Below are positions 1-20,734 of a stretch of DNA of 35,539 nucleotides, piece by piece. Under the pieces are notes generated by a model that worked only from the letters and a program-made list of their open reading frames with translations, had not been told where the DNA came from and did no database searches. A program made the translations under genes and the position numbers. Origin of the DNA: an uncultured Thermodesulfobacteriota bacterium (lineage in GTDB: Bacteria; Desulfobacterota; RBG-13-43-22); NCBI GenBank assembly GCA_964609705.1, contig CAZSTT010000004.1, positions 13,183 through 48,721 of the forward strand, written 5' to 3'. How positions within the stretch are numbered: the stretch's first letter is position 1; each line of letters begins with the position of its first letter.

Positions 1-1223
1 GAACGATAACTGCCCAGAAGGCCGGCTTTAAAATAATCCTTGGTCACCAGGAAACAGAGATGGACCGGAGAAAGCATCATCCCCATAAAGCCGAAGACAT
101 AAGCCAGGGCGGCATAGGAAAGAAAATTAAAAAGGGGAGTTGGGGGAAAGAGGGGGATGATCAAAGGGAAGGAAGTCCCCACAAATCCAATACCGATTCC
201 GGTAATGAGTCCGGAGAGAAAGGGCATAATGACAATGACCAGCAGCATGGGAATCCGGAAAGTCATCAATTCGGTCCTGATGTCGACCACGGCCCGGCTG
301 TCTTTCATAATGCCCTGGAAAATCATGATGGCCGCCACCAATAATAAAATGGAGAGGATGCTCCGGTCATAAACCGCCGCCGCCAACTGCCTGAGGGAAA
401 TCCGGTTGACCACACCGACCCAGATCAGGGATACCAGAAGACCGGGAAGAATAGAGATAACCCCGGGCAGACCGATCTTGACCCCGGCCCAATTCAGCAG
501 AAAGGTCAACCCTTCCAGGAAGAGGATGACCAGGACCACAATCAGAATGGGCATGATCTCCCAAAAAAAAGTTTTCAACTCTGAAGAGGAGAAGACTTTC
601 TTCGGTTGTAATGATTCCGACCGGATGGGTTTCAAAATGAAGACGACGCCGGCCAGAATCATGACCAGGGTCATGGGGATCATGACGGCTATAAACTGCC
701 AGGTGGCCACCTTCAGCAAGGCCACGGCCAGAACCACCGCCGGATAAAGGGGCCACCAATATTCCCAGATGTGCCGGAACCAATAATTGACCGCCGTTTG
801 CTGTTCGCCGGACAAGGCGCACTTGTTAAAAGTGGTTTCGACCATGGGCGCCGAAAAAAGCGCGCCTCCGGGCATGGGCAGGAGCCCGATTAAGGCCGGC
901 AGCACCGATCCGGCGGTGCGTTCATCGCCCGATAGCCCGGCAAAGCCCTCGACAATCCGGTCCATATGGCGGCTCTCTTTCATCAGGCGGCTGATGATCA
1001 GGATAGAACCGACAATCAGGAACAAGCTGATGGTCTGGAGTTGTGAGAGACTTTGGAGTGTGCTCCCGATCACCTCACCGGGAGCCAGTTTCATCCACAA
1101 ACCCAGCACCAGAGAACCGATAAGGAGGCAAAGACTCAACCCCAGGCGTAATCGGTTGAGAATGAGGATCAGGCCGAAGACGCCCAGTATTTTTACCAGG
1201 GCGGGAATGGAATAAAATATCAC
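1..1223 (-). CDS. DUF401 family integral membrane protein (3' end runs off the window)
   Basis: Missing from the ORF track because it has no stop in the window. Manual translation from GTG at 1223 (GTGA overlap with the stop of the upstream gene) gives MIFYSIPALVKILGVFGLILILNRLRLGLSLCLLIGSLVLGLWM, with internal IGLLPMPGGALFSAPMV and NYWFRHIWEYWWPLYP, which are DUF401 signature segments. Hydrophobic throughout. Confidence 0.8.
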   Translation of the reverse strand, partial: MIFYSIPALVKILGVFGLILILNRLRLGLSLCLLIGSLVLGLWMKLAPGEVIGSTLQSLSQLQTISLFLIVGSILIISRLMKESRHMDRIVEGFAGLSGDERTAGSVLPALIGLLPMPGGALFSAPMVETTFNKCALSGEQQTAVNYWFRHIWEYWWPLYPAVVLAVALLKVATWQFIAVMIPMTLVMILAGVVFILKPIRSESLQPKKVFSSSELKTFFWEIMPILIVVLVILFLEGLTFLLNWAGVKIGLPGVISILPGLLVSLIWVGVVNRISLRQLAAAVYDRSILSILLLVAAIMIFQGIMKDSRAVVDIRTELMTFRIPMLLVIVIMPFLSGLITGIGIGFVGTSFPLIIPLFPPTPLFNFLSYAALAYVFGFMGMMLSPVHLCFLVTKDYFKAGLLGSYR

Positions 1224-3157
1224 AATCGCCAGGCCGCCCGCGCCCCTTCTTCGACGGCCTCAAAAATCCGCCGGGGTTGGAAGGCATCGCCGATGACTGA
1301 AAAAGGAATTTTTAAAGACTCCAAGATCTCTTTTAACTCGTCCCTGGGCTTCAACCCCACGGCCAGAACCACCTGATCGATGGGAGACAGGGTCGAGGGC
1401 TCCCCTTTGGTTTCAATTTCAACACTCCCGTCGCCGATGGACTTTAAGACCGTGCCAAAGAGGAGACGGCATTTTTTTTCCTGAAGGCGCTGGTGCAGCA
1501 TATATCCGTGAGAGGTGATCTTCCGTACCGGTGACCGCTCCAGGATTTCAACCAAGGTCACTTCCTTTCCCTGGGCGCTGAGAAAATCAGCGGTTTCCAT
1601 CCCGATCAGGCCTCCGCCGACCACCAGAATGTGATTTTTAGGCGTAACCGTACCGCTCAGGATCTGCCAGGCATCGCAGACATTGGGTTTTTCAGACCCT
1701 GGGATATAGGGGATTATCTTTTCCCCACCGGTAGCCAGGATCACATAATCCGGGTTTTGATCCCTCAATAACTCTTCATTAACCCATGTGCCGCTTTTGA
1801 TGGTTACTCCGGTTTGTCTGACTTGATCGATCTGCCAATCGATCCATTCTCCGTAGATTTTTTTATAGGGCGGTATCCGGGCGTAACGGAGCTGGCCGCC
1901 CAGTTCCTTCTCCTGCTCGAAAAGGGTTACCTGGTGACCCAATCGGGCGGCTTCGAAGGCCGCGGTGAGACCTCCGGGGCCTGAGCCTACTACCAAGACC
2001 TTCTTCGGCTTTGCTGCCGGACCCTGGGGATAAATGGTTTCCTGGCCGGTCTCCGGATTGATGGAACAGCGGATATTGCCTTCCCCGAGTATCTCCCGTT
2101 CGATGCAGCCCTGGTTACAGGCGATACATTTTCGTATTTCCGCGGTTCGACCGGCCTTGGCTTTGATCAGAAAATCCGGGTCGGCCAGAAATTGACGTCC
2201 GAAGGCCACCAGGTCCGCATCCCCGCGACCGATCACCTCATCAGCCAGGGCCGGGTCACTAAACCGTCCGACCGCGATAACCGGTACCGAAACAACCTCT
2301 TTCATTTTTTTTGCCAGACCGACATTGAAACCCGGCTCATATTCGGCGGTGGCCTGGGTGATAGCTCCGGGGCTCCCGTGAGTGCCTATGGAAGCATGAA
2401 TGATATCGGCCCCGGCCCGGACCATATCGGGGAGGATGGTCTGCATATCCTCGATGGTGTAGCCCCCCCGGATGTATTCTTCTCCCGAGAGCCGAAGGGA
2501 AATGGGAAAATCCGGGCCGATGCAGCGCCGGACTTTTTCAATGACTTCGATAACAAATCGGGATCGTTCTTTCAGGGTGGCCCCGCCGTATTCGTCGGTC
2601 CGACGATTGGATATGGCCGATAGAAATTGGGTCAGCAGGTAGCCGTGAGCCCCATGGATCTCCACCGCATCGAAGCCGGCCTCCCGGGCCCGACCCGCGG
2701 CCGATCCGAAGGCCAGGATAACTTCTTGGATGTCTTCCAGAGTCATCTCCCGGGGCGTCTTTCGGAAGACGATACTTGGGACCGGCGAGGGCGCCACGGC
2801 CTTCCCTTGTTCCAGGAGAAAGCTACTCTCCCTGCCGGCATGATGGATCTGCATGGCGATCTTGGCCCCGGCCTCATGGGCCACGGCCACCAGTTTGGAA
2901 AGTCCCGGGATGAACCGGTCCTCATAGGCGCCCAACTGGTTCGGAGAGGCAATGCCTCCCGGGTGAGCCGCGGTTATTTCGGTGATGATCAACCCCGGCT
3001 GACCCTGGGCCCGGCGTTTCAGATAGGCCAGGTTTTCCGGGCTGACGGACCCGTCATCCCGGCCCAGGTTAGTCCCCATAGGGGGCATCACCACCCGGTT
3101 GGCCAGGGACATGGATTTAATGGTCAGGGGTGACAGAATATGGTTTAGTGGGCTCAT
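1220..3157 (-). CDS. OYE-family NADH:flavin oxidoreductase with [4Fe-4S] and FAD/NAD domains (FadH/BaiCD/Ncr-like architecture)
   Basis: TIM-barrel motifs NRVVMPPM, QIHHAGR, GFDAVEIHGAHGYLLTQFLS, NRRTDEYGG; Fe-S motif CIACNQGC-x12-C; two Rossmann motifs VVGSGPGG and VVGGGLIGME. Start chosen at ATG 3157 after RBS GAAGGAG. Confidence 0.9.
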   Translation of the reverse strand: MSPLNHILSPLTIKSMSLANRVVMPPMGTNLGRDDGSVSPENLAYLKRRAQGQPGLIITEITAAHPGGIASPNQLGAYEDRFIPGLSKLVAVAHEAGAKIAMQIHHAGRESSFLLEQGKAVAPSPVPSIVFRKTPREMTLEDIQEVILAFGSAAGRAREAGFDAVEIHGAHGYLLTQFLSAISNRRTDEYGGATLKERSRFVIEVIEKVRRCIGPDFPISLRLSGEEYIRGGYTIEDMQTILPDMVRAGADIIHASIGTHGSPGAITQATAEYEPGFNVGLAKKMKEVVSVPVIAVGRFSDPALADEVIGRGDADLVAFGRQFLADPDFLIKAKAGRTAEIRKCIACNQGCIEREILGEGNIRCSINPETGQETIYPQGPAAKPKKVLVVGSGPGGLTAAFEAARLGHQVTLFEQEKELGGQLRYARIPPYKKIYGEWIDWQIDQVRQTGVTIKSGTWVNEELLRDQNPDYVILATGGEKIIPYIPGSEKPNVCDAWQILSGTVTPKNHILVVGGGLIGMETADFLSAQGKEVTLVEILERSPVRKITSHGYMLHQRLQEKKCRLLFGTVLKSIGDGSVEIETKGEPSTLSPIDQVVLAVGLKPRDELKEILESLKIPFSVIGDAFQPRRIFEAVEEGARAAWRL

Positions 3158-3355
3158 CGTTATCTCCTTCAAAGAAAATTAGTTGTTAAAAGGTGATGGT
3201 CAGATAGAAAGGTTTTATCCTGCCATAAGATCCTGGAGGCCGTCAAACAGAAAAATAAAAACAAGGCGGAAATGGCCAATCAATATCCTGTTTAAATTTT
3301 ATTAACGCCTTCCTTTTGAACCTGACCGGCTGTCCGTTCAGGGGGTTCTTTTTGA

Positions 3356-4132
3356 TTAACAATGGGGGGCGGTGATATGGGTCCAGATATTTCCAACGGC
3401 CTCATAAGCCGGAGAATCACCGGGTAGTTCCAGTAGCGGTTTTCCCTCCAGATCAAATTGGGTGAGGCCGGGGTCTTCAGGGACGAACCCGAAGAGATCC
3501 AGACCGGTTTTTAAGATATGGGGCTGAAGTTGTTTTTCCTGGCCGTTGACGCGGTTTAACACCAGCCCTAACTTTTGATATTTAAATATTTTTTTATGGG
3601 AGGTGATGACGTCTTTTATGAGGGCTGCGGTTTGCAGTCCCCGATTGGAAATATCGGAGACGATCACCACCGTATCCACGCTTTTCATCACCTGGCGGTT
3701 GATCTGCTCCACTCCGGCCTCCCCGTCCATGATAACCACATCGTAATTTTCCGCCAGCATTTCGATCCCGCTTCTCAGGAAATCATTGACCGGACAATAA
3801 CAACCCAGGGATTCCGGCCGGCCCATAACCAGAAAGCTGAAACGGTCCGCTTCAATTAAGGCTTCAAACAGCATATATTCCAGAGAACGGGCCAGATTGG
3901 TTGTTTCCTTTTTTCCGGCCTTTCGCGCCTCCTGGATGATTCTTTCTCGAATATCGTTGACGGTTTTCTTGGGGGATAAGCCCAGCACCGAAGATAAATT
4001 CATGGTCGGGTCGGCATCAATAACCAATAAGCGTTGGTTATTAGTTTCCATAAGATACTTGGTCAGCAGGGCCACCAGGGCGGTTTTGCCGCTCCCCCCT
4101 TTTCCGCAAACCGCTACCAGTTTTTTCTCCAT
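3356..4132 (-). CDS. cooC: CooC/AcsF-family nickel-insertion ATPase (MinD-like)
   Basis: Deviant Walker A GKGGSGKT, IDADP, GRPESLGCYCPVN (CxC metal site) and DGEAGVEQINR. Start at ATG 4132 after a GAGGAAA RBS. Confidence 0.85.
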   Translation of the reverse strand: MEKKLVAVCGKGGSGKTALVALLTKYLMETNNQRLLVIDADPTMNLSSVLGLSPKKTVNDIRERIIQEARKAGKKETTNLARSLEYMLFEALIEADRFSFLVMGRPESLGCYCPVNDFLRSGIEMLAENYDVVIMDGEAGVEQINRQVMKSVDTVVIVSDISNRGLQTAALIKDVITSHKKIFKYQKLGLVLNRVNGQEKQLQPHILKTGLDLFGFVPEDPGLTQFDLEGKPLLELPGDSPAYEAVGNIWTHITAPHC

Positions 4133-4183
4133 GATTCTTTTTCCTCTTAGTCCGAGAATAGCGACCGTCGCTAAACGAGTTCT

Positions 4184-4234
4184 ATTTTCATGCTTGAAGG
4201 TGCCACGCCCCCAAAGGCGGGGCATGGCGGGTTA
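4184..4234. repeat. Dispersed palindromic intergenic element, copy A
   Basis: ATTTTCATGCTTGAAGGTGCCACGCCCCCAAAGGCGGGGCATGGCGGGTTA shares both ends with 28922-28994 and contains an internal GC hairpin. Confidence 0.65.
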
Positions 4235-5065
4235 CTCCAGAGCGTATCCCGGATTTTCTTCTTCTCGGACAGTAACCAACCGGTCACCTTTCCGGATCCG
4301 GATCACATCCCGGATGGTATCGCAAACAACCTGTTCGGAACAGGAATTACAATCCAGTTCCCGGGTGCATTCAAATGCTCCGTCTGAACCGACGGTATAG
4401 GTTTCCAGCTTTCTCTGTTTGATCCGGGCCTGTTCCACCAAATCATCCAATTCGTTGACATCATTTTTCGAACCGGTAACAAAGAAAATCTCACAGGCCG
4501 CTACCGGGTCGCATTGTTGTTTTATGGCGGTGATCAATCTTTCTCCCAGTCGCTTCAGCGAAAACCCGGAGCGGCAGGCTTCCTTGCTGACCCTGGCCCA
4601 TATCAGATTCGGGACGCTTCGGATCATATACCCGTCGGTTTGAGCGTAGCGGTGGGCTATCCGATCCATGGTTGAAGCCGTATTTTCAATTTCAAGGGTT
4701 GCTTGAGACGGGGCTTCGATTTCATTGGGACTTTTCAGCGCGGCGATGATGATTTGGGCAAAGGGCAACACAGGTTCCTGCGTTTCGGAGATTTCGGGAC
4801 CGACGAGATGGATGCACCTGTCCGAGACCAAATCCAAACGATGGGTGGCCAGTGTGGCGGAACAGGACCCCTGGGAAGGATGTCCCAACTCCACCTGGGT
4901 GTCTTCCTTCAGGACAATCCTTCCGTTTCTCCTTCCGGACTGATCGTCCGATAAAATAGGGAGAGTGATTCCCGGCGGAAGGAAGAAGCGGCGGGATTGT
5001 CCGTTCTTGGTTTTAGCCTCAAACCAGGCTTTTATTTCTAAGATAGCATCATCAAACAGGTCCAT
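4232..5065 (-). CDS. Stand-alone acetyl-CoA synthase (AcsB/CdhC) middle-domain homologue with C-terminal Cys cluster
   Basis: Segments VLKEDTQVELG, IHLVGPEI, LPFA and NLIWARVSKEACRSGFSLKRLGERLI correspond to the ACS middle domain (IRKGDMYVEMGG / IEVIGPDI / NINWLRVSKDAVAKGFRFKNYGEIL, recalled from Moorella AcsB). Ends with C-x5-C-x2-C-x5-C. Only 277 aa and has no Cys-Gly-Cys. Confidence 0.75.
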   Translation of the reverse strand: MDLFDDAILEIKAWFEAKTKNGQSRRFFLPPGITLPILSDDQSGRRNGRIVLKEDTQVELGHPSQGSCSATLATHRLDLVSDRCIHLVGPEISETQEPVLPFAQIIIAALKSPNEIEAPSQATLEIENTASTMDRIAHRYAQTDGYMIRSVPNLIWARVSKEACRSGFSLKRLGERLITAIKQQCDPVAACEIFFVTGSKNDVNELDDLVEQARIKQRKLETYTVGSDGAFECTRELDCNSCSEQVVCDTIRDVIRIRKGDRLVTVREEENPGYALE

Positions 5066-6285
5066 CAGGCACCGGCTTTATAAGGATAATAGCGCCGGAC
5101 CACGTCAAACTGGGCCAGTTGATGCCCTCCCAGCCAAAGTTGGATCTCCTTGACGTCCCGCCAGTATTTTTCAACATGATAGTCCCGGATATATCCATAG
5201 GAACCCATCAGTTCCATGAGCCGGCCGATGGTGGTGTTGGCCATATGGCAGGCATGGTTTTTGGCCGCGCTGGCATGGCTGATCATGGCCGGGGAGTGGA
5301 CTTCTCCAAATTGGTCGGGGTGACTCAGCATATAGGCCACCTGGAGATAATAGGCCCGGGCCGTCTCAATGCCGGTAATGGCATCGGCCAGGATACCGGC
5401 GGCAATAGAATGCTCCCGGATCGGTTTGCCTCCCACTTCCCGTTCTCCGGTATAGCGCAGGCATTCTTCAAAGGCCCCCCGGGCGCAGCCCACGGCCGCA
5501 GCGGCGCTGACCACCCTTCCGATAGAGACATTACGTTTCAGAATAATGGCATCTTCGCCGGCTCCGGCCGCCCGGTAGGACAACGGGACCCGGACATCGT
5601 CGAAAAAGATATCGCAATTGCGGTCCGACTGCAGACCGGCCTTGATTTCGAATTTGCCGAAGCTGAGGCCCTTGGCATTGTCGGGCACATAAATCAGGGC
5701 AATGCCCTCCTCTCCCTTTTCTGGAGCTGTTTGGCAGACCACGCAATAGAAAGAGGAGATACCGGCATTACTCGGGAATCGTTTGGCCCCGTTGATCACC
5801 CAGCTGTCTCCGTCTTGAACGGCACGGGTCTTAATGGTCCGTCCGTGCATCTCTGGCAGATTTTCCACATCGCAACCGCTGGCCGGTTCGGTCATGGCAA
5901 AGCAGGCAAAGGTGGGCTGTTTCTCCTGCTGGCGTTTCTGAAAGGCTTCAATGACTTGCCGGTTTCGGCCGTACTGGGCGCCGGCCATAGCCCAGCTGTT
6001 AATGCCGGCCACCAGTCCGATTCCGGCATCCCCCCGGGCAAATTCTTCTATAACAGCGCAAGCCATGGGAAGGGACGGACCTTCGACATCCGATCCTTCT
6101 TCGGGCAGGTTCACATTAAAGACCCCCAGGGCGGACATCTTGATCAGCAAATCGTTGATGAGCTTGTGTTCGGTATCGGCATCGAACCGGTCTCTAAGGG
6201 GCATGATCTCGGTTTCCACAAATTTGCGAACCACATCAACAATCATTGCCCCGCCTTCATCCACAAAAAGCGGAAAATATTTCAT
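5065..6285 (-). CDS. Acyl-CoA dehydrogenase family protein (non-canonical active site)
   Basis: FAMTEPASGCDV, WVINGAKRF, IFFDDVRVP and GSYGYIRDYHVEKYWRDVK motifs. Its stop overlaps the next start (TGATG). Confidence 0.9.
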   Translation of the reverse strand: MKYFPLFVDEGGAMIVDVVRKFVETEIMPLRDRFDADTEHKLINDLLIKMSALGVFNVNLPEEGSDVEGPSLPMACAVIEEFARGDAGIGLVAGINSWAMAGAQYGRNRQVIEAFQKRQQEKQPTFACFAMTEPASGCDVENLPEMHGRTIKTRAVQDGDSWVINGAKRFPSNAGISSFYCVVCQTAPEKGEEGIALIYVPDNAKGLSFGKFEIKAGLQSDRNCDIFFDDVRVPLSYRAAGAGEDAIILKRNVSIGRVVSAAAAVGCARGAFEECLRYTGEREVGGKPIREHSIAAGILADAITGIETARAYYLQVAYMLSHPDQFGEVHSPAMISHASAAKNHACHMANTTIGRLMELMGSYGYIRDYHVEKYWRDVKEIQLWLGGHQLAQFDVVRRYYPYKAGA

Positions 6286-6328
6286 GACGAATGGTCTCCT
6301 TTTCTTTTTTTATTGTTCCATAAGAAGC

Positions 6329-7450: not shown

Positions 7451-7467
7451 CGGTGCCCTCCTTATTT

Positions 7468-8739
7468 CTACAGTGAAGTAAAAAACTCTTCAATCTGGTT
7501 TTTCAGGTTCTCGGCCGATACCACCCGGTCATCGTTATAATCCATTTCCAGGAAAAGGGCGGGGATACCCTCCTTTTGGAAAAAATGGCGGAGGATGCCG
7601 CCGGCGCCGCAAATGCTGTTGCAGCCGACGTGTTGGGTATAGATCACCGCGTTACAGCGATATTGATGATAAAGTTTCATAGTGTATTCGATCATTTTCC
7701 GGGAATCAAAGCGCATGAGCGACATGGTCATGTCCAGCCCCTGCCAGGCATAGCCCTCGAACATGGTTTCGTCGTTGCTGGTATCGATGGGGCGTAAAAT
7801 GGCTGATCCGGTCAGCATATTGGTGACTACGGACACTTTAAGTTCCTGTTCCATCCAGGAGAAGAATAATGGGTCGAAGGTCGGAGGAACATGACCCCAG
7901 ATCACCCGGTGTTTTTCTTCAATCGGATGGGGGATGCCCTCCTTCAAACGCCGCATGACCTCATGATGAAAAACCTGCAGGCTGTCTGTTGCTTTGGGAT
8001 CTCCGGCAGCGGCCAGAAACATCTCCCAGGGGAACCCCCTCACGGACGCAGGAACCGGCATCGGCGTGGTCGTATAAGTATCGAAAACATCCAGCATGAG
8101 TTCGTAGGCCCGGTTGGATTCTTCAATGATCTCCCGGAAGCGGTCCAAGTTAAATTTTTTACCGGTCATTTCTTCCAAAAAGGGGACCAGTTCCTTCCGA
8201 ATCTGTTGTCCGTACCAACGGGCCGATTCCCTTTCATAGGTGGTGGGAAGTTCCAGAAACAGGGCGGGTACGCCCAGAGCTTTTTGCATGATGGGATAGG
8301 CGATCCGGGTCCCGTCACAGGGACCGGAGCAGGTTACAAAAAAAGAATTTTTCGGAAATTCTCCGCTGAGAGCGGCTCCCACCAGAAATCGGTCGGTGGA
8401 ACAAACGTCAGAGGGCAGCCCGGCCGATTCGGCGGCATCGAGAAATTCATGAACCACCTGTTTTTGGCTGGCGGTGAACCGCACTGGAAAGGTTTCCAGG
8501 CAAAGGGGAATACAGTCAAAGGCATAAAATAACTGGGGGGTCAATCCAAATTCAAAAAGGGCGATGGTTTTTTCCGGATGATTCGCGGCCTCGGTCAAAT
8601 CTTCCAGGCGGGTGACCAGACCCTCCACCCGCATGGCCTGGAGTTTCATATCCGCATCATCCAGGGCTCGAAGAAATTCAAGAGCCGGCTTTCCGAATTC
8701 ATTGACCAGGCGCCGGGTTTTTTCAAAGGTTTTTCCCAT
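7468..8739 (-). CDS. 2-hydroxyacyl-CoA dehydratase / class I aryl-CoA reductase alpha-type subunit (HgdA/BcrB/BzdO-like), copy 2
   Basis: GLPSDVCS, GPCDG and HVGCNS cysteines; C-terminal GIPALFLEMDYNDDR...IEEFF. Start at ATG 8739 after an AAGGAG RBS. Confidence 0.85.
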   Translation of the reverse strand: MGKTFEKTRRLVNEFGKPALEFLRALDDADMKLQAMRVEGLVTRLEDLTEAANHPEKTIALFEFGLTPQLFYAFDCIPLCLETFPVRFTASQKQVVHEFLDAAESAGLPSDVCSTDRFLVGAALSGEFPKNSFFVTCSGPCDGTRIAYPIMQKALGVPALFLELPTTYERESARWYGQQIRKELVPFLEEMTGKKFNLDRFREIIEESNRAYELMLDVFDTYTTTPMPVPASVRGFPWEMFLAAAGDPKATDSLQVFHHEVMRRLKEGIPHPIEEKHRVIWGHVPPTFDPLFFSWMEQELKVSVVTNMLTGSAILRPIDTSNDETMFEGYAWQGLDMTMSLMRFDSRKMIEYTMKLYHQYRCNAVIYTQHVGCNSICGAGGILRHFFQKEGIPALFLEMDYNDDRVVSAENLKNQIEEFFTSL

Positions 8740-8813
8740 AAGCCCACTCCTTTCCAACCGACCAGGGGCCTACTCCAATGATAGGGTTAGGTCTTGAAGA
8801 GTCCGAAGAATGT

Positions 8814-9593
8814 TTATTTCGACCCTCTCTCTTCGGCCAAAAGGGCCGCGCCAAAGGCGGCTACAGCCCGGGGGTCCAGGTTGTATTCGACAAAGGATGT
8901 TCCGAGTTCCTTCTCAATATCACGAACGGCAATCTTGTTTTTAGCTAACCCGCCGACAATAGCCATGGGCTGGTCCAGGGTAACCCGTCTAACCACGGCG
9001 GCGACCTTGCCGGCGACGGACTGAGAAATCCCGGCAAAGATGTCCAGTCGATCTTTCCCCTCATTGACGTGGGTAATAACTTCGCTTTCGGCAAAAACCC
9101 CGCATTGGCTGGTAATCGGCAAGGCCTTGTTGGACGACAGGGCAGCCGTGCTCAATTCTTCAATCGGCATCTCCAGGGCCTGGGCCATGACTTCCAGAAA
9201 CTTACCGGTTCCCGCGGCACATTTTTCATTGGCAGCCGAAGCGGTGACCTTACCCGCACTATCCATATTAAAGGCCTTGATGCTGCTGCCGCCGGCATCG
9301 ATGGCGGTCCTGATTTTCGGGTTCAGCGTCCTTAATGCCCGGCTGAGGCAGACCAGCTCCGGGAGGTCTTTATCGGCAAAAGGGACCGCTTTTTTCCCGA
9401 AACCGGTCGATAAACAATAAGCGATCCGGTCCAGGGTTAAACCGGCTTTCTGCAAAGCGATATCCATGACGGCCAGGGCCGCTTTTTTGGGAAGACTGGT
9501 GTAGGCCAGTATTTCAGCCGCCAGGATGTTGCCGTTTTCAATAAGTACCGCCTTGGCGGATATGGTTCCCAAATCACATCCGGCATAAATCAA
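8814..9593 (-). CDS. ATP-dependent electron activase subunit (ASKHA; BzdP/BcrD/HgdC-like)
   Basis: GCDLGTISAKAV, STGFGK, ANEKCAAGTGKFLE, ITSQCGVFAESEV, VGGLAKN and AFGAAL. Confidence 0.9.
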   Translation of the reverse strand: MIYAGCDLGTISAKAVLIENGNILAAEILAYTSLPKKAALAVMDIALQKAGLTLDRIAYCLSTGFGKKAVPFADKDLPELVCLSRALRTLNPKIRTAIDAGGSSIKAFNMDSAGKVTASAANEKCAAGTGKFLEVMAQALEMPIEELSTAALSSNKALPITSQCGVFAESEVITHVNEGKDRLDIFAGISQSVAGKVAAVVRRVTLDQPMAIVGGLAKNKIAVRDIEKELGTSFVEYNLDPRAVAAFGAALLAEERGSK

Positions 9594-10402
9594 TGGGTTT
9601 CACCTCCTTCCGTCTTTCTTTTAAGTTTTCCGGATCGTTCTGCCGCGAACACGGCCGCTCCCAGGGCCCCGACAATTTGCGGGTCTTCGTTTAACGGCAC
9701 AAAGCGGATATCCAGCATCTTTTCCAGGTTTTTGACGACCCCGTTGTTTTTACAGACCCCGCCGGTAATGGTGATGCCCGGTTTAACACCCACCCGGCCT
9801 ACCAGCATTTTAACCCGTCTGGCCATGGATTCGTTGATTCCGGCGGCGATATCCGCCGGCTCTTTATCTTCCATCAGATAATGCATGATTTCCAACTCAG
9901 AAAATATGCTGCATTGACTGGTAATGGTAATCGTCTGACCGGCTTTTTCCGCCAGGGCGGCTAATTCGCTGAAATGAACCCCCAGATATTTAGACATCAG
10001 TTCCAGCGATCGTCCGGTACCGGCGGCACATTTATCATTCATCACAAAATCCTGAAGGACCCCATATTCATCCACTCGTATGACCTTGCAATCCTGACCG
10101 CCGATGTCGATAATGGTCCTAATACCGGAGTCCAGGAAATGAGCCCCCTTGCCGTGACAGGAAATTTCACTGATATTGTGATTGGCGAAGGGTATGGATT
10201 CACGCCCGTATCCAGTGGAGACGGTATAGTCGATATCGTCATAGGTAAGCCGGGTTGAGGCCAGGGCTTTGTCCATTACCTCCCGGGCGGATTGTTCCGC
10301 CTTGGGTCTGACCCGAATAATTTCTGAGGCTACTATTTTTCCATCGTTCAAAATAACCGCTTCGGCCGTCAATGAACCTACATCACATCCGGCGACAATC
10401 AT
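9590..10402 (-). CDS. ATP-dependent electron activase subunit (ASKHA; BzdQ/BcrA/HgdC-like)
   Basis: GCDVGSLT, STGYGR, EISCHGKGA, DIGGQDCK, MNDKCAAGTGR, ITSQCSIF, TGGVCKN and PQIVGALGAA. Confidence 0.9.
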   Translation of the reverse strand: MIVAGCDVGSLTAEAVILNDGKIVASEIIRVRPKAEQSAREVMDKALASTRLTYDDIDYTVSTGYGRESIPFANHNISEISCHGKGAHFLDSGIRTIIDIGGQDCKVIRVDEYGVLQDFVMNDKCAAGTGRSLELMSKYLGVHFSELAALAEKAGQTITITSQCSIFSELEIMHYLMEDKEPADIAAGINESMARRVKMLVGRVGVKPGITITGGVCKNNGVVKNLEKMLDIRFVPLNEDPQIVGALGAAVFAAERSGKLKRKTEGGETH

Positions 10403-10453
10403 TAAATTTTATCTCCCTTTCCTTGGTTCAAAAAATGGGTTATTAACCCTTAA

Positions 10454-10527
10454 GGGCAATAGGCAATAGGCTACAGGTAAAAAAGAATAAAAAAAACAGT
10501 AAAACCTATTGCCCTTGCCGATTGCCC
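10454..10527. repeat. Inverted heptamer (GGCAATA/TATTGCC) arms around an A-rich loop
   Basis: GGGCAATAGGCAATAGGCTACAGG at 10454-10477 and CCTATTGCCCTTGCCGATTGCCC at 10505-10527. Confidence 0.6.
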
Positions 10528-10602
10528 AGAGGTAGACTTGATCGGTTTCAGAGATCAAAAGACAAGGGGATCAATCCCATTTTCTTATTACCAAGTTGAA
10601 CT

Positions 10603-11973
10603 TTAAACGATCGTTTCAAAGAATTCTTCCAGCTGCTCCTTGATAACCTCCATGGGGGTGGTTCGGGAATCCCAACCGTCGGCTTCCATTCTAAGAATAG
10701 GAACACCGAGTTCCTTTTGAATCCGGTCGGCTACTATCCGATAAATACCCCAAACCTGCTTGCAGGCCGTATGGCCGGTAAAAACCACACAGTCGGCCTT
10801 ATATTTTTCCACATAATACAGCAGGTCCGAGATCCATCCCCCGTGGAAATTATTACTTCCTTTCAACTGCCGGGTCATGGGCAGATTCATATTGATGGCC
10901 GCCAGTCCCGAAAGCATGGTATCCATATTGGCGGTGTCGATATAGGGCACATGATCGTTGAAAATAAGCATATCCATAATATAGGAAACGCCCATCTCTT
11001 CCTGAAACCATCCGTAAAAAGAGGTGTCGAAATAAAGACCGGTATACATAAACATAAAGCGGATACGTTCTTCCGGTAATACATGTTTGCCTTTTTTAAA
11101 GCGGTCCAATGATCGGTCATAAGCCATTTGATAAAAATCCACGGCATCCTGGGTTCCCAGTTTGGTCAGTTTTGTGCCTAAGTGGTTCATATTATAATAA
11201 TTTGGAACCGGGTTGGGCACATGACGTTTTAAGTCGCTGATCTCCATGGCCAGTTCATTGGCTTTATTGGACAAGGAACAGACTTCGCGGAGACGGTCTT
11301 CGTCGAGTTTGTTTCCTGAAACATCTTCCAGGATTTTCACGACTTCTTTAAAGCCCTGTTCATAATATTTGAAGGACCTTTTGTCATGGTAATAAGGCAC
11401 ATCAACAAAAAGAGTGGGAATCTCAAATTTTTCTCCCATGTATTCAAAAACCTTCGTGTTCGGATCGCAACCGCCCAAAGCGCCGTTGACTAATAAATCG
11501 GGTTTTCCCAGAACGCCGGCTTCAAGCATGCCGACCACCGCCCGTTGGGCGGAACACATAGTCTCCGGCAGTCCCCGTTCCACGGCCAGATCCAGGTAGG
11601 GGTGAATGCCCTCCTCCAGGGTCATGGTCATGGTATCCAATATTTCGACACCTACGGGGATCATATCCAGGGCGTAAAATATCTCCGGAGAAAAATTAAA
11701 AGGGATAAAGACCACTTTTTTGCCCAGGTCTTTGGCAGTCAGAACGCTTTCCCAATAATTGCCCATGCCCCGATTGAAAACATTGGAAATCATCCGTGTG
11801 TCGGGGTCCTTGGCCATGGTGATAAACATCGATCGCCGGCGTTCGGGTAAACTGTCCAGCAATAATTGGACTTCCGGGGATTCGAAATTTAAATCCTCCG
11901 GGATAACAGAACCCATCCTGAAGGCCTCCACCATTCTTTCCAGTGCCTTTGGTTGTGTCGTCATGGTCATCAC
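10603..11973 (-). CDS. 2-hydroxyacyl-CoA dehydratase / class I aryl-CoA reductase alpha-type subunit (HgdA/BcrB/BzdO-like), copy 1
   Basis: GLPETMCS, GGCDPNTK and HTACKQ cysteines; C-terminal LGVPILRMEADGWDSR...LEEFFE. Confidence 0.88.
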   Translation of the reverse strand: MMTMTTQPKALERMVEAFRMGSVIPEDLNFESPEVQLLLDSLPERRRSMFITMAKDPDTRMISNVFNRGMGNYWESVLTAKDLGKKVVFIPFNFSPEIFYALDMIPVGVEILDTMTMTLEEGIHPYLDLAVERGLPETMCSAQRAVVGMLEAGVLGKPDLLVNGALGGCDPNTKVFEYMGEKFEIPTLFVDVPYYHDKRSFKYYEQGFKEVVKILEDVSGNKLDEDRLREVCSLSNKANELAMEISDLKRHVPNPVPNYYNMNHLGTKLTKLGTQDAVDFYQMAYDRSLDRFKKGKHVLPEERIRFMFMYTGLYFDTSFYGWFQEEMGVSYIMDMLIFNDHVPYIDTANMDTMLSGLAAINMNLPMTRQLKGSNNFHGGWISDLLYYVEKYKADCVVFTGHTACKQVWGIYRIVADRIQKELGVPILRMEADGWDSRTTPMEVIKEQLEEFFETIV

Positions 11974-13097
11974 CCGATCCTTTCCAGAAAAGCCTGCACT
12001 CTGGTCCTTATCCGCCCGGCATCGGCCAGAGGACCGTATTGTCTTTCCAATTCAATGACAGGGATATTATCTTTCTCCAGGTTGGTTTTTAAAAGGGCAT
12101 TATCCGTCCCGTGCTGATCGCAGAACTTGATGTATTCCAAGATGGCCCCATCGGCCCGGCTTCGCTTGATCTGATCCCTGACAAACTCAAGTCTTCGTTT
12201 AAATTCTCCGGCCATTCTGGGACAGGGTTCATGATGGTAATATCTTCGGCACAGGGCCTCAAAAGGCTCCTCAGTTTCATCGGTCAAATTCCAGATGCCC
12301 CTGGCGCCGAAACACAAGGCGTCGGAAACGACAATCGCCCCGAGACTTTCCACATTCTCGATGAACTCCGGATCATCCAGTTCGCTTCCGGCTACGACCA
12401 GCCTGGTTTTGTTGTTTTTTTTCTGAGGCTCGGTGCCGGTCGTCGTTAGAATTTCATTCAAAAGCCGGTTGAAGCTTTCTTTTGGCATCAGATGGGAGGC
12501 GATAGTCAGAGTCAGGGCTTCAGCGCCGGTAAAGGGGGGATTTTCTCCGGTCCTCAGGTCATAGACTTTTCTAAGCAGCCGGCGAGTCTCATTATAAACG
12601 GCTACGGCCTTTTTTAAGTTTTCCGAAGTCACCTTAACGCTAAACCGGGTTTCAAAGGCGGATTTTAATTTTGCAACTTCCTCCTTAAACCATTGATAGC
12701 CGGCTTCGGAAAGGCGATGAGGCACTGGCAGGATATACATAAAGGGAAGGGCCGCGGTTTCATGGGTCGCCCAGTTTTCATAGCACCTCCGGATGTGATC
12801 GCAGCCATTGACAAATATCGCCCCGTCCAAAAAGTCAAATTTCGAATCCAGGGCCGCTTCCAGGCAGCAGCGGGCAAAACTGCAATTGACCCGGGATAAA
12901 TAAGAATCCGCCTTGGACGAATCGGTAACTCCCCGGCCGGTAATCCGGTAGGGCAAAATATCCACCGCATACAGAAGTTCTTCCGGAAGGTAGGTGCAGG
13001 CATAGCCCATGACCTTTTTCCCCTGCGACCTCCAATCCCGGATATAAGGATTATCCAGGGATCTGCAAATTTTTGACAATTCTTCCATGGCCTTCAC
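11970..13097 (-). CDS. 2-hydroxyacyl-CoA dehydratase / class I aryl-CoA reductase beta-type subunit (HgdB/BcrC/BzdN-like), copy 1
   Basis: GYACTYLPEEL, VNCSF, NGCDHIRR, DALCFG, KFCDQH and RIRTRVQAFLE. GTG start at 13097 after an AAGGAGG RBS. Confidence 0.88.
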   Translation of the reverse strand: MKAMEELSKICRSLDNPYIRDWRSQGKKVMGYACTYLPEELLYAVDILPYRITGRGVTDSSKADSYLSRVNCSFARCCLEAALDSKFDFLDGAIFVNGCDHIRRCYENWATHETAALPFMYILPVPHRLSEAGYQWFKEEVAKLKSAFETRFSVKVTSENLKKAVAVYNETRRLLRKVYDLRTGENPPFTGAEALTLTIASHLMPKESFNRLLNEILTTTGTEPQKKNNKTRLVVAGSELDDPEFIENVESLGAIVVSDALCFGARGIWNLTDETEEPFEALCRRYYHHEPCPRMAGEFKRRLEFVRDQIKRSRADGAILEYIKFCDQHGTDNALLKTNLEKDNIPVIELERQYGPLADAGRIRTRVQAFLERIG

Positions 13098-13381
13098 GGT
13101 AATACCTCCTTTTGAAAAGATTGAAGCAGCCCGGCCTCCCGGCATTCAGGGCAGGCCCAGAGTGATAAATCCCATGAATGTTTTCTGACAACACCTCCCC
13201 TGCGGTAATTAAACATTATCAGGGAATTGTCCATTATTTCCAGGGGCAAATACTCTTTGGGGGTACCGATTAAAGTCGAATCGGGATGGGATGGGAGGAA
13301 TCGGGAGAAGATTGGGTTTCGGGTTGAAAAAGACTCGGGGGAACGGCAACCCGCAGTAATTTTTCCGCGTCGGACTTTCAT
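13094..13381 (-). CDS. Small hypothetical protein (95 aa) heading the operon
   Basis: GGAGG lies 8 nt before ATG 13381, and the stop overlaps the GTG of the next gene (GTGA). Contains a CPEC motif. No family recognised. Confidence 0.4.
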   Translation of the reverse strand: MKVRRGKITAGCRSPESFSTRNPIFSRFLPSHPDSTLIGTPKEYLPLEIMDNSLIMFNYRRGGVVRKHSWDLSLWACPECREAGLLQSFQKEVLP

Positions 13382-13605
13382 AAAACAATCCTCCAAAGAT
13401 TATGGAAGAACCATTTTCAGATTTAAGTCCTATATTACTTCTTGCCTTGAACTTTTTTTATTTTTTGGACCTAGCTTACACTCTTTTCAAAAAAAAAGGA
13501 ATTATTATCGAAGGATCATTTGAAATTTTTACGGTAAGAAGGGTAAGTGAGGGCAAGGGGGTTCTTTGGCTTTTCTGCCGAGTTGAAAGGTGACAACTAG
13601 GGATC

Positions 13606-15537: not shown

Positions 15538-15548
15538 GGGACCGGCCG

Positions 15549-15989
15549 TTATAAAGGGACGGCTTCCTGGAGATACCATTCGATGCGCGACAGGGTCTTG
15601 ATCAGGATGTTTTTCATCTGGGGCCAGCGCAGCGGAGGAAGTTCCAGGATAAAGCTGGCGCATTCCCCGGGGACCAGTTTCCCGGCCAGGAAACCCACCA
15701 GGATAATCACCCCGAAGATGATCAAGGCCCAGGCAATGAAGATCCAGGCCGGGAATCCGGCCAGCATGCCGAAAATGACCGCCAATTGGGCCGAGCAAGG
15801 GACCCCCAAAGCCAACAGCAGGGTGACGATGATTTTATCCCTCCGGGTCTCTAATATTCTGGTGGTCATGGTGGCCATGGTGTCACATCCCAGGCCCAGG
15901 ATCATGGGTAACACGGCTTTGCCGTTAAGCCCCATAATATTGAAAATCCGGTTGCTCATTACCGCCAGTCTGGGTAATTAACCGGAGTT
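15549..15989 (-). pseudogene. feoB: feoB internal fragment (relic)
   Basis: Reads NSG*LPRLAVMSNRIFNIMGLNGKAVLPMILGLGC...GVPCSAQL...FILELPPLRWP...EAVPL*. This matches the FeoB DSGYLPR / gate / PCSA / ELPP regions, with Tyr replaced by TAA at 15978-15980. The GTPase domain and the C-terminus are absent. Confidence 0.8.
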
Positions 15990-18348: not shown

Positions 18349-18554
18349 GATAAACCTCCTTTTCAAATTTAACGGTTAACTTCCAATCTCCGGTTGGGTA
18401 AAGTGACTCCCTTGTTTCTCATTAAAAAGTTCTTTCAGCATCATATCCACCAGAATCCAGGTCATCCCATTCCTTTTCAAAAATGGGATTAATTTAATAA
18501 ATAGGTTGATCAAAAATCGATCAGTAATACTATTGCCATATAACTTAATGTCTG

Positions 18555-19103: not shown

Positions 19104-19115
19104 TATTGGCTCACA

Positions 19116-20535: not shown

Positions 20536-20536
20536 C

Positions 20537-20725: not shown

Positions 20726-20734
20726 GTGACCAAC

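Follow-up and report, generated by a model that had tools for sequence, protein, structure and literature searches.

The window analysed in this work, a stretch of 35,539 nucleotides from an uncultured Thermodesulfobacteriota bacterium, begins with an unbroken array of 12 co-directional open reading frames (ORFs), which in the ORF listing extends across positions 3-13396 of the minus strand (viz. 3-1223, 1220-3172, 3356-4225, 4232-5065, 5065-6285, 6329-7450, 7468-8757, 8814-9593, 9590-10402, 10603-11973, 11970-13145 and 13094-13396), with an additional minus-strand ORF (13606-14445) lying outside it. The operon-like set of 11-12 co-directional genes reported in a preliminary description of this DNA is thus real, and the stop/start overlaps given there (1220-1223, 5065, 9590-9593, 11970-11973 and 13094-13097), as well as the two gaps (3158-3355 and 10403-10602), are all found at these positions. 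Each of the domains named there also has a Pfam match, and the domains of the array are DUF401, Oxidored_FMN together with Pyr_redox_2, a CbiA/MinD-type ATPase, CdhC, ACAD, four HGD-D and two BcrAD_BadFG. None of the array proteins reaches an NCBIfam equivalog cut-off, and the possibility, raised earlier, that all of these genes are close orthologues of a characterised operon does not hold, as none of the components is closely orthologous to a characterised enzyme.

The four HGD-D proteins form two N/O catalytic pairs (375+456 aa and 373+429 aa), both with complete cluster cysteines (6 + 3). The first pair consists of an N-type small catalytic subunit (11970-13097, minus strand; BzdN 8s02_B, E 2e-53), whose 375 aa are counted from a GTG at 13097 with AGGAGG upstream, within a 391-aa ORF open to 13145, and an O-type large catalytic subunit of 456 aa (10603-11973, minus strand; Pfam HGD-D 3e-57). 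In the second pair, a BzdN-like N-type subunit of 373 aa (6329-7450, minus strand; Pfam HGD-D 1e-83; BzdN 8s02_B, E 3.5e-32) is accompanied by a BzdO/MbdO-like O-type subunit of 429 aa (7468-8757, minus strand; Pfam HGD-D 9e-59), the solved relatives of which are MbdO (9g87_A, E 4e-9) and BzdO (8s02_A, E 9e-8). All six of the double-cubane cysteines listed for BzdN in the available part of PMC11971306 have aligned counterparts in the 391-aa ORF (BzdN Cys36/73/100/263/293 and the KFCD Cys), and these columns, which are the [8Fe-9S] ligand positions, are invariant in 10/10 aligned N-type subunits, while three O-subunit columns (C140/C169/C404) are invariant in 11/11 aligned sequences. The hexad would fit a BzdN-like [8Fe-9S] double cubane and the triad an open-site [4Fe-4S] cluster. 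However, conservation of His131 of BzdO is lacking in the O subunits, and BCR-type Birch chemistry is therefore not established. The 456-aa O subunit is the most conserved component of the cluster; against solved structures it gave no BzdO match at 1e-5, its best relative being DCCP (7yyl, E 9e-11). The identity of its homologues runs from 93% down to 50% and then falls to 35% or less, and by this sequence measure it defines a sharply bounded orthologue group that is seen in uncultured organisms only. At four loci (L001, L002, L008 and L026) this subunit is 84-91% identical to that of the window, and the mini-ACS protein described below 54-76%.

A single heterodimeric pair of BcrAD/BzdQ-type electron-activating ATPase subunits (P/Q) is placed between, and is common to, the two N/O pairs. 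The 259-aa subunit (8814-9593, minus strand; Pfam BcrAD_BadFG 9e-42), with Cys125 and Cys164, scores 185 bits against TIGR00241, above the cut-off of 125 for this family, and its 270-aa paralogue (9590-10402, minus strand; Pfam 2e-56), which is 40% identical to it and whose gene overlaps by 4 nt, scores 244 bits. The next protein, an ACAD-fold flavoprotein (5065-6285, minus strand; Pfam ACAD N, M and C domains), carries Leu at the position of the canonical catalytic Glu, in the motif 'IQLWLGG' as against 'IYEGT' in paralogues of the same genome, which bears out the earlier statement that it is atypical. This 'IQLWxGG' clade is found at 7/51 and 10/45 of the mini-ACS loci in the two locus sets considered below, and at three loci (L104, L105 and L108) the ACAD-like gene alone stands beside mini-ACS, with no HGD-D/BcrAD gene.

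The stop of the ACAD-like gene overlaps by 1 nt the start of a gene for a 277-aa protein (4232-5065, minus strand; Pfam CdhC 2e-13), which is referred to here as mini-ACS. It consists of an N-terminal helix, the CoA-binding middle (A2) domain of ACS and a C-terminal Cx5Cx2Cx5C tail that ends about 30 residues past the motif; the A1 domain, the A3 domain and the Cys-Gly-Cys nickel site are all absent by profile, fold and alignment. A profile search of the PDB matched ACS/CdhC middle domains only, and the AF2 model (pLDDT 78.5) found 1oao_C as the best Foldseek match (E 7e-12, about 180 columns). From residue 230 onwards pLDDT is below 60, and since the cysteine tail is modelled at such low confidence, a metal centre within it is a putative one. 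In the profile alignment, the first Cys of the tail falls on the Cys that comes first among the cubane ligands in the A-cluster segment of ACS. The proteins of this family are stand-alone and 230-320 aa long, a CxxCx4-7C motif is present in 45/45 of the members sampled, and every member has only 3-4 Cys. By their spacing in the profile alignment, W156, R135 and H138 map onto Trp405, Arg383 and His386 of ACS, of which, in the available part of the report on the C. autoethanogenum ACS-acetyl-CoA complex (bioRxiv 10.1101/2024.08.05.606187), Trp405 stacks on the adenine and Arg383/His386 lie on the thiol side.

Downstream of mini-ACS follows a CooC/AcsF-type P-loop ATPase (3356-4132, minus strand; Pfam CbiA/MinD-type) of 258 aa when counted from ATG 4132; the open frame itself extends to 4225, and its homologues begin at residue 29-37 of this long ORF. 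Its Walker A is GKGGSGKT, a GCYC metal motif is present, and the best solved relative is CooC1 of C. hydrogenoformans (3kje, E 3e-14), with CYC aligned on CYC. Walker A and GC[YF]C are found in 43/43 of the mini-ACS neighbours that cover the site. The relatives of CooC are metal insertases.

The recurrence of these genes was examined in an HMM-found set of 45 mini-ACS loci, drawn from 31 genomes of the phylum to which the window belongs, and in a second, pattern-found set of 51 loci. In the HMM-found set, HGD-D/BcrAD genes lie within 8 kb of mini-ACS at 39/45 loci and within 300 nt at 33/45, and where at least 5 kb is available on both sides such a neighbour is present in 26/27 cases; of the six loci lacking one, three are short or cut contigs and the others are L104, L105 and L108. 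Of the 20 pattern-found loci flanked by 8 kb or more, 16 have HGD-D/BcrAD genes. The link is seen in co-directional, divergent and convergent gene orders, it holds for at least four divergent N/O types (27-42% identical to those of the window), and it spans sequence records named Desulfobacterales, Poribacteria, Abyssobacteria, Actinomycetota and others. The pairing of an ACS-like protein and CooC beside HAD/BCR genes, to which the preliminary description had tied its proposal, is therefore conserved elsewhere, in several phyla by record name. A CooC-type ATPase with GCxC follows mini-ACS in 23/45 HMM-found loci, and it lies within 2 kb in 36/39 pattern-found loci that extend 900 nt or more downstream; because it is missing within 8 kb in 22/45 of the former, it is not obligatory in cis. 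The 456-type orthologue occurs in 7 of 401 sampled genomes, and all seven are among the 33 genomes with mini-ACS. Of five probed genomes that have the pair but no adjoining HGD-D/BcrAD gene, 4/5 encode a 62-67% identical 456-type protein elsewhere; in the genus g48 the 456-type gene is not linked to the copies of mini-ACS, and in genome G041 (locus L003) the pair is present and the 456-aa subunit matches at only 30%.

The boundaries of the conserved cluster are indicated by the genome of the nearest congener (G012), in which the upstream synteny is kept, viz. orf279 (89% identity) and a divergent O-methyltransferase (90%). The protein of orf279 (13606-14445, minus strand) has a weak likeness to Nudix/CoA pyrophosphatases (NCBIfam PRK10707, E 3e-7; 30 bits, the cut-off being 134); it is syntenic in G012 alone and was not found in the other loci. 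Between it and the cluster lies orf100 (13094-13396, minus strand), a 100-codon open frame whose stop shares GTGA with the start of the first N-type gene. It has no Pfam or NCBIfam match, and tblastn gave no match in the 51 mini-ACS loci or in the syntenic region of G012; orf100 is doubtful as a gene because it lacks both a family match and a homologue in G012 despite the syntenic neighbours.

At the other end, the CooC-type gene is followed by an AT-rich spacer of 198 nt, the limits of which (3158-3355) are set by the start of the next gene at ATG 3157 (GGAGA upstream; ORF open to 3172), and which is bridged by contigs from 4 sequencing runs, all of one study and possibly the assembly's own source. 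This next gene (1220-3157, minus strand; Pfam Oxidored_FMN 4e-80, Pyr_redox_2 3e-32) encodes a 650-aa FadH/enoate-reductase-type OYE flavo-Fe/S oxidoreductase, which has in common with FadH, enoate reductase and 2-naphthoyl-CoA reductase-type enzymes an FMN domain, a CxxCx3Cx12C motif (Cys349/352/356/369) and an FAD/NAD(P) domain. However, it falls below every equivalog cut-off (best match BaiCD, 520 bits against 825) and is not conserved with the cluster. The last gene (3-1223, minus strand; Pfam PF04165, E 4e-50) encodes a DUF401/TIGR00529-family membrane protein, 444 aa when complete, whose C-terminus extends past the window start and which is present in full at L021:13071-14405. The OYE recurs in 1/51 pattern-found and 1/45 HMM-found loci and DUF401 in 0/51 and 2/45, and the stretch of G012 fetched past the CooC-type gene contains no close OYE, no DUF401 and no KARI match, its nearest OYE-like protein being one that matches in the FMN domain at 33% and lies about 9 kb from the cluster. 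The conserved cluster thus stops at the 3158-3355 spacer, and the earlier assignment of OYE and DUF401 to the set is not upheld. The OYE is probably a separate unit specific to the window genome, and with DUF401 and a downstream KARI-like gene it would form one genome-specific unit.

The cluster shares features with several known systems and differs from each of them. BzdNOPQ of Aromatoleum sp. CIB (BzdNO, 8S02) and the 3-methylbenzoyl-CoA reductase MbdONQP (9G87) likewise combine HGD-D N/O subunits with two different BcrAD-type ATPases, and the six BzdN double-cubane and three O-subunit [4Fe-4S] cysteines are present in the window. However, the window proteins score far below the equivalog cut-offs (bzdN 185/454, bzdO 32/449, bzdQ 201/380), BzdO can hardly be aligned with the O subunits, one ATPase pair goes with two N/O pairs, genes for ferredoxin or BzdV and for the dienoyl-CoA hydratase, dehydrogenase and hydrolase are lacking, and mini-ACS and the CooC-type gene are extra. 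The 2-hydroxyacyl-CoA dehydratases with their activator (HadBC/HadI, 3O3M), after which ACAD/ETF reduce the enoyl-CoA, belong to the same enzyme family as the N/O proteins, and had/fld operons, like the cluster, include an ACAD-fold gene. Whereas these systems have one homodimeric activator gene and [4Fe-4S] in both subunits, the window has two different ATPase genes, the six-Cys double-cubane pattern, an ACAD with no canonical Glu, and neither a CoA-transferase nor an ETF. DCCP with DCCP-R of C. hydrogenoformans (6ENO, 7YYL) has the six-Cys pattern and an ATP-dependent BcrAD-type reductase partner in common with the window, but DCCP, in the available part of PMC7317905, is homodimeric, with a single subunit type and a 7-Cys motif, as against N/O heterodimers here, and the NCBIfam double_cubane scores, 191 or 184 bits, stay below the cut-off of 350. 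Lastly, mini-ACS shares with AcsB/CdhC the A2 fold and, to the extent that the ACS report covers them, the acetyl-CoA residues in WxR(I/V)S and RxxH, and, as with ACS and its maturase (AcsF/CooC), its companion is a CooC-family ATPase bearing CxC, whereas its gene stands beside BCR/HAD-family genes rather than CODH/CoFeSP genes. A separate canonical ACS of 746 aa is encoded on another contig of the window genome.

Based on these observations, the region 3356-13097 is best read as one uncharacterised ATP-dependent Fe-S enzyme system of the class I benzoyl-CoA reductase/2-hydroxyacyl-CoA dehydratase family with mini-ACS as its dedicated partner, to which we give a probability of roughly 0.55. 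The core of the cluster is a predicted Bzd-type BCR-like enzyme. At the expense of ATP, the P/Q module would drive low-potential electrons into either of the N/O modules, and these modules would reduce, in a BCR-like manner, or dehydrate an acyl-CoA, reduction being suggested because two different ATPase subunits are present; the substrate, as stated previously, cannot be read from the sequence. Mini-ACS, which would not be an acetyl-CoA synthase, may bind CoA or an acyl-CoA through its retained A2 face, on which the Trp, Arg and His used by ACS to hold acetyl-CoA are still present. Its tail may carry an Fe-S or metal centre, loaded by the CooC-type ATPase where present, and mini-ACS may serve the N/O enzyme as its dedicated partner, or as an additional subunit, in the handling of CoA esters or as an electron relay.

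In the preliminary description all 11-12 genes were taken as one CoA-ester pathway, in which an ACS fragment with CooC-matured Ni carries out a C1 step and the OYE reduces a dienoyl- or aryl-CoA. Its operon-like array, atypical ACAD and conserved ACS-like/CooC pair have been retained here, whereas the membership of OYE and DUF401 and the C1 step have not, and the proposal as a whole is improbable. It agrees with the co-directional, overlapping genes, with the nickel motif (CxC) of CooC1 kept in the ATPase, with the thioester-positioning residues of ACS kept in mini-ACS as far as the ACS report describes them, and with an OYE fragment adjoining mini-ACS in L040 and an FMN-domain protein in L080. 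However, as mini-ACS lacks A3 and Cys-Gly-Cys, with 3-4 Cys throughout the family and an NCBIfam cdhC score of 37.9 bits against a cut-off of 356, there is no sequence basis for carbonylation or decarbonylation; the OYE, preceded by its spacer, and DUF401 hardly recur, and in G012 the cluster and the synteny upstream of it are preserved, but the downstream stretch fetched holds other genes. It is less improbable, though still unlikely, that mini-ACS and the CooC-type ATPase serve solely in maturation, as a scaffold and an insertase that build a special metal cluster or insert it into the N/O subunits, and stand outside the working enzyme. The pair may be at the operon end, divergently transcribed or unlinked, mini-ACS evolves faster than the catalytic subunits (54% in L002, as against 84-85% for the 456-aa subunit), and the general role of CooC relatives would suit an insertase. 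Against this, G007 and G010 have 16 HGD-D genes each and no mini-ACS, mini-ACS directly adjoins structural genes in 33/45 loci, the CoA-binding face, so far as the ACS report defines it, would be superfluous for a cluster scaffold, and BzdNO with [8Fe-9S] and [4Fe-4S] was, according to the available part of PMC11971306, made in E. coli with no such factors.

A role of mini-ACS as a dedicated low-potential electron carrier, substituting for ferredoxin between the ACAD-like flavoprotein or another donor and the P/Q module, appears quite unlikely. Ferredoxin and ETF genes are absent from the cluster, the ACAD-like gene abuts mini-ACS in the window and in 5/45 loci, at L001 an additional protein with a Fer4 domain is encoded between the two, and L104, L105 and L108 have no nearby N/O gene, all of which such a carrier would accommodate; but there is no sign of a redox-active cluster in mini-ACS, a simple carrier leaves the kept CoA-binding residues unexplained, and the ACAD clade is missing in 35/45 loci. 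It is very improbable indeed that common descent or the large number of HGD-D genes has produced the adjacency as a side effect, the function of the pair being unrelated. Up to 19 HGD-D genes are present per sampled genome, which raises chance adjacency to about 3-5% by our own rough estimate, many loci come from related uncultured lineages, and solitary pairs exist (L003, L006, L011 and L031); however, 39/45 loci are observed against that expectation, and the link persists across the divergent N/O types, the differently named taxa and all three gene orders. In the literature no description was found of mini-ACS and a CooC-type ATPase beside BCR-like enzymes, and in the loci compared here mini-ACS and a nickel-chaperone-type ATPase recur beside BCR-family enzymes in many uncultured anaerobes.

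The first 13.4 kb of the window consist, in the ORF listing, of a minus-strand array of ORFs without interruption, and every domain named in the preliminary description was confirmed there by Pfam. This strand carries DUF401 (3-1223), an OYE with Oxidored_FMN and Pyr_redox_2 domains (1220-3172), a CbiA/MinD-type ATPase of the CooC type (3356-4225), a CdhC-domain protein of 277 aa (4232-5065; hereafter mini-ACS), an ACAD (5065-6285), four HGD-D proteins of 373, 429, 456 and 391 aa, and two BcrAD_BadFG ATPases of 259 and 270 aa. The gene overlaps reported earlier were likewise all found (ORF listing and inspection of start codons). The gene within the 391-aa frame starts with GTG at 13097 behind AGGAGG, and the nucleotides GTGA (13094-13097) are common to this start and to the stop of an upstream ORF, orf100. 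The OYE gene starts with ATG at 3157, preceded by GGAGA, and therefore the gap beyond it is 3158-3355, as had been described, whereas the CooC-type gene probably starts with ATG 4132. Contigs of four sequencing runs, all belonging to one study, bridge the spacer between these two genes, and the assembly itself may derive from them; no RNA run was among those listed in the search for sequencing runs. A promoter/terminator scan gave an uninformative picture: promoter-like sites numbered 12 (shuffled sequence, 13.1 +/- 3.2) and terminator-like sites 34 (shuffled sequence, 21.5 +/- 4.6), and the single site located inside a gap of interest (viz. 3158-3355 or 10403-10602) was a weak 5-bp hairpin at 10449-10437. 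There was no Rfam match in the whole window, and none of the genes reached an NCBIfam equivalog cut-off.

The source assembly of the window (contig C4, 13183-48721) comprises 3.58 Mb in 275 contigs and is 93% complete. The full-length DUF401 protein is 444 aa, and a KARI-like gene and a trp operon lie downstream of it; just outside the window, this trpCFBA row is headed by one 1058-aa ORF (8260-11436 of the fetched locus L021) which is a TrpE-TrpG-TrpD fusion, i.e. anthranilate synthase components I and II plus anthranilate phosphoribosyltransferase. Upstream of the cluster are found orf279 (13606-14445), a divergent O-methyltransferase gene and housekeeping genes. Of FeoB, only a C-terminal fragment (Gate and FeoB_C, 136 aa) is present at 15346-15959, overlapped by a second ORF in a different frame, and it is probably a gene remnant. 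The region ~18000-21200 has a low GC content (0.41-0.42 vs ~0.52 elsewhere) and encodes a PEMT/ICMT-like methyltransferase, a LysE exporter and a HicB-like antitoxin. The same genome contains a canonical 746-aa ACS on another contig, numerous ACAD and OYE paralogues, and, on contig C37, a second cluster of N-, O-, P- and Q-type genes where no match to mini-ACS or the CooC-type ATPase was found.

The closest solved structure to both small (N-type) subunits is BzdN (E 2e-53 for the 391-aa and 3.5e-32 for the 373-aa protein). In PMC11971306, the ligands of the BzdN [8Fe-9S] double-cubane cluster are given as Cys36/73/100/263/293/327 and those of the BzdO active-site [4Fe-4S] cluster as Cys95/128/380 plus water. 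The acid/base residues of the O subunit in the Bzd-type BCR are Glu65 and His131. When aligned to 8s02_B, the 391-aa protein has Cys opposite all six BzdN ligands, and these six columns are invariant in 10/10 aligned N-type sequences, the 373-aa subunit included. Among the O-type (large) subunits, three Cys columns are invariant in 11/11; the equivalents of BzdO Cys95 and Cys380 are aligned, the Cys128 region reads CsgpCdg, and the position of His131, which is not conserved, is occupied by Gly/Thr, while the alignment gave no placement for Glu65. The 429-aa O subunit is very remote from BzdO and MbdO (E 9e-8 and 4e-9), and the 456-aa O subunit has no match to either at 1e-5, its best solved relative being DCCP (E 9e-11). 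The 270-aa and 259-aa ATPases are 40% identical to one another, and each has two Cys which we take to be those expected for the bridging cluster. The presence of two different ATPase genes points to an architecture of the BCR type rather than the HAD type, and the cluster encodes a single P/Q (ATPase) module together with two alternative N/O (catalytic) modules.

The likeness to the Bzd-type BCR thus lies in the six double-cubane Cys of the N subunit and in the presence, beside the N and O genes, of two distinct genes for BcrAD-type ATPase subunits; however, the NCBIfam scores remain below the cut-offs (bzdN 185 vs 454, bzdO 32 vs 449 and bzdQ 201 vs 380 bits). DCCP is described in PMC7317905 as a homodimer of one subunit type with a 7-Cys motif, whereas the cluster in the window has two subunit types, and none of its proteins (191, 184, 72 and 64 bits) reaches the NF040772 cut-off of 350. 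The 456-aa subunit is the most conserved component, showing 84-91% identity at loci where mini-ACS shows only 54-76%. Its homologues, all of metagenome or MAG origin, range from 93% down to 50% identity and then fall to 35% or less, and they form a bounded group.

In acyl-CoA dehydrogenases the catalytic Glu lies in a C-terminal (I/F)(Y/F)EGT motif, which is not present in the ACAD-like protein of the window. Its sequence at this position is IQLWLGG, and most of its paralogues from the same genome have xYEGT or xFEGT; the alternative Glu position of the IVD type was judged by its motif only. The clade with QLWxGG recurs alongside mini-ACS, x being L, V or M in most of its members and E (QLWEGG) in the three loci where the ACAD and mini-ACS alone adjoin.

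A profile of 28 members of the mini-ACS family, searched against all solved structures, matched ACS and CdhC alone and in them the middle domain alone (e.g. 9c0s_E, E 1.8e-11; residues 327-505 of C. hydrogenoformans ACS). The AlphaFold model of mini-ACS (mean pLDDT 78.5) is of good quality as far as residue ~220, beyond which the tail is poorly modelled, and its best Foldseek match, 1oao_C (E 7e-12, ~180 columns), covers the same A2 domain. According to bioRxiv 10.1101/2024.08.05.606187, acetyl-CoA in the C. autoethanogenum CODH/ACS is held mainly by A2, where Trp405 stacks on the adenine and Arg383/His386 are located at the thiol end. In the family alignment, W156 of mini-ACS is invariant and R135 and H138 are at least 90% conserved; judged only by the spacing in the profile alignment, these residues would be the counterparts of Trp405, Arg383 and His386. 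The A2 middle domain with its CoA-binding Trp/Arg/His is thus kept in mini-ACS, for which CoA binding is predicted. However, the A-cluster enzyme has an A3 domain with four cubane Cys and a Cys-Gly-Cys for the Ni-Ni site, whereas mini-ACS relatives have just 3-4 Cys (45/45), and neither a Cys-Gly-Cys nor an A3 domain was found in mini-ACS by the family alignment, the listing of Cys residues, or the profile and fold matches. The tail of mini-ACS reads Cx5Cx2Cx5C and the protein ends 29 residues past the last Cys; CxxCx4-7C is kept in 45/45 members of the wider family, and the fourth Cys in 33/45. His62 (ELGHP motif) was considered as a metal ligand and rejected, since it is invariant in the close subfamily only and is replaced by N/S/P/A in the wider family. 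The family is large and its members are stand-alone proteins: at thresholds of E <= 1e-3, <= 1e-10 and <= 1e-30 it numbers 610, 392 and 105 representatives, respectively, and the best 150 are all 88-319 aa long.

The best solved relative of the CooC-type ATPase is CooC1 (3kje, E 3e-14), and its CYC lies opposite the CYC of CooC1. The CooC/AcsF metallochaperone ATPases combine a deviant Walker A with a CxC at the dimer interface, and both motifs are found here as GKGGSGKT and GCYC; among the proteins encoded next to mini-ACS, all those whose sequence spans this site (43/43) have Walker A and GC[YF]C. A predicted complex of two CooC-type chains and one mini-ACS gave a median of 0.31 vs a mark of 0.32. 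In the spacer from the mini-ACS stop to the CooC-type start (4199-4230), the contig depth exceeds the flanking depth by a factor of ~4-7 in three runs and of 2-3 in the fourth (an example value is 51.6 vs ~8), and loose contig ends flank a stretch of ~31 nt within GC-rich, hairpin-like sequence. This pattern suggests a short element with further copies in the community. Contig C68 of the same genome (locus L022, 2360-8556) also encodes a CooC/MinD-type ATPase, with 38% identity to that of the window, along with an enoyl-CoA hydratase, a 648-aa OYE 39% identical to that of the window, and two proteins (474 and 128 aa) without any Pfam match.

The conservation of the gene neighbourhood was examined in two samples. 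Sample A consisted of loci identified by peptide patterns (18 from species-representative genomes and 33 metagenome contigs), scored by tblastn with the window proteins as queries (E <= 1e-5). A CooC-type gene was present within 2 kb of mini-ACS in 36/39 loci with at least 900 nt downstream, the exceptions being L007, L014 and L042 and 12 further loci being too short for this count. An HGD-D or BcrAD gene was present in 31/51 of all loci and in 16/20 of those with at least 8 kb of flank (exceptions L003, L006, L011 and L031). The ACAD was found in 8/51 loci (seven of the QLWxGG clade), the OYE in 1/51 and DUF401 in 0/51. For sample B, which is less biased than A, 401 genomes of the window's phylum were searched by HMM, giving 47 mini-ACS matches in 33 genomes; the 45 matches outside the window's own genome and the same-genus genome G012 were fetched with 8 kb per side and HMM-scored. 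The expectation that the ACS-like/cooC pair is kept beside HAD/BCR-family genes in other genomes was borne out: an HGD-D/BcrAD gene lay within 8 kb in 39/45 loci, in 26/27 where at least 5 kb was available on both sides, and within 300 nt in 33/45, and a CooC with GCxC lay within 2.5 kb in 23/45. The six loci lacking an HGD-D/BcrAD gene are either short or cut (L093, L099 and L101) or have an ACAD-like gene adjoining mini-ACS (L104, L105 and L108). HGD-D genes are common (up to 19 per genome), and we put chance adjacency at roughly 3-5%, an estimate of our own rather than a computed figure. The association covers at least four divergent N/O types with 27-42% identity to those of the window, it is seen in co-directional, divergent and convergent gene orders, and the record titles of the pair loci name Desulfobacterales, Poribacteria, Abyssobacteria, Thermodesulfobacteriota and Actinomycetota.

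In sample B the ACAD clade was found in 10/45 loci, the OYE in 1/45 and DUF401 in 2/45. The OYE and DUF401, which had been counted as members of the pathway, hence hardly recur in either sample; the pathway as first outlined contains a real, conserved cluster, but it was drawn too wide because these two genes are not part of it. The sole recurrence of DUF401 found is at L082 and L083 (genomes G389 and G074 of one genus), within 8 kb of a mini-ACS-CooC-N-O-ATPase operon. In G012 the cluster, orf279 (89%) and the O-methyltransferase gene (90%) are syntenic, and the genes beyond the CooC-type gene are others, viz. FAD_binding_2, SBP_bac_5, amidohydrolase and AMP-binding; no homologue of orf100 (13094-13396) was found in this syntenic region or in the other loci searched.

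Several other gene arrangements were observed at these loci. In three Desulfobacterales/Desulfobacteraceae MAGs (L002, 12530-15085; also L003 and L008), the opposite strand just past the CooC-type gene encodes a VWA-domain protein together with a CbbQ/NorQ-type AAA ATPase, a pairing of the sort that acts as metal-centre chaperones, and the same region contains genes for a radical-SAM/ferredoxin-domain protein, PrpD, MeaB and enoyl-CoA hydratase. In a mini-ACS-linked cluster of a Poribacteria MAG (L004, 4903-7809), the gene for a 968-aa molybdopterin oxidoreductase lies between the O-type and N-type genes. Upstream of the stand-alone pairs at L006 and L011, where no HGD-D gene was found within 10 kb, aldehyde:ferredoxin oxidoreductase and class I/II aminotransferase genes are common to both MAGs.

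An orthologue of the 456-aa subunit (E <= 1e-100) is present in 7/401 genomes, and all seven are among the 33 with mini-ACS, which occurs in 26 of the remaining 394; however, four of the seven belong to one genus and these genomes are therefore not independent, and in that genus the 456-type gene and mini-ACS are unlinked. Five genomes with no HGD-D/BcrAD gene beside the pair were probed (those of L003, L006 and L011 and of the short loci L005 and L010; L031, a metagenome contig, falls outside such probing), and 4/5 carry a 456-type gene of 62-67% identity elsewhere, the L003 genome having matches just 30% identical. The genomes of L004, L007, L009 and L013-L018 have 456-type matches of 27-38% only, and their pairs adjoin other N/O types. 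Among 40 relatives examined, mini-ACS was found in only 2/13 congeners, and there are HGD-D-rich relatives without it (e.g. G007 and G010, with 16 genes each), and the pair is therefore confined to a subset of these enzymes rather than required by all of them.

Based on these results, the cluster, with its N/O and P/Q subunits, ACAD-like protein, mini-ACS and CooC-type ATPase, is a genuine variant of the BCR/HAD enzyme family that is conserved, as yet uncharacterised and equipped with a novel accessory module. In the mechanism proposed here, P/Q would inject electrons, driven by ATP, into either N/O module acting on an acyl-CoA; mini-ACS would bind CoA or an acyl-CoA, its Cys tail would hold a metal or Fe-S centre that the CooC-type ATPase, where its gene is present, would load, and it would serve as a partner or an extra subunit of the N/O enzyme. 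If the pair were instead purely a maturase, the CoA-binding face would be superfluous for a cluster scaffold, and, according to PMC11971306, BzdNO made in E. coli acquires its clusters with no such factors present; this explanation therefore ranks lower. A broader role, as a general maturase of double-cubane clusters, was also ranked low in view of the HGD-D-rich genomes without mini-ACS and the production of BzdNO in E. coli. The C1 step suggested in the preliminary description found no support, and, judged from its sequence, mini-ACS would be unlikely to carry out such a step because the Ni-Ni site is absent. The specific possibility that mini-ACS is a third, CoA-ester-binding metallo-subunit, which the CooC-type ATPase loads with a Ni or Fe-S centre and which gives a subset of ATP-driven BCR-family enzymes a chemistry at the thioester (making or breaking of the acyl-S bond with the help of a metal, or very-low-potential decarbonylation) is a speculative one, to which we assign a probability of about 0.12.

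No description of the pair beside BCR/HAD-family genes was found in the openly accessible literature (main texts), PMC6849830, PMC13416013 and PMC9686372 included. The mini-ACS family comprises several hundred sequence clusters with not one member characterised. Acetyl-CoA synthase is among the oldest carbon-fixing enzymes, and here a stand-alone fragment of it is re-used as a partner of BCR/HAD-family reductases. The reductions that these enzymes carry out rank among the most difficult in biology, and the equipment of their variants matters to enzymology and to anaerobic pollutant degradation. To this the window adds the bounded orthologue group of the 456-aa O subunit, a two-module architecture and an ACAD-like companion, which are concrete targets for expression. 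If the metallo-subunit reading is true, these proteins would represent a new organometallic/radical class of CoA-ester enzymes descended from acetyl-CoA synthase.
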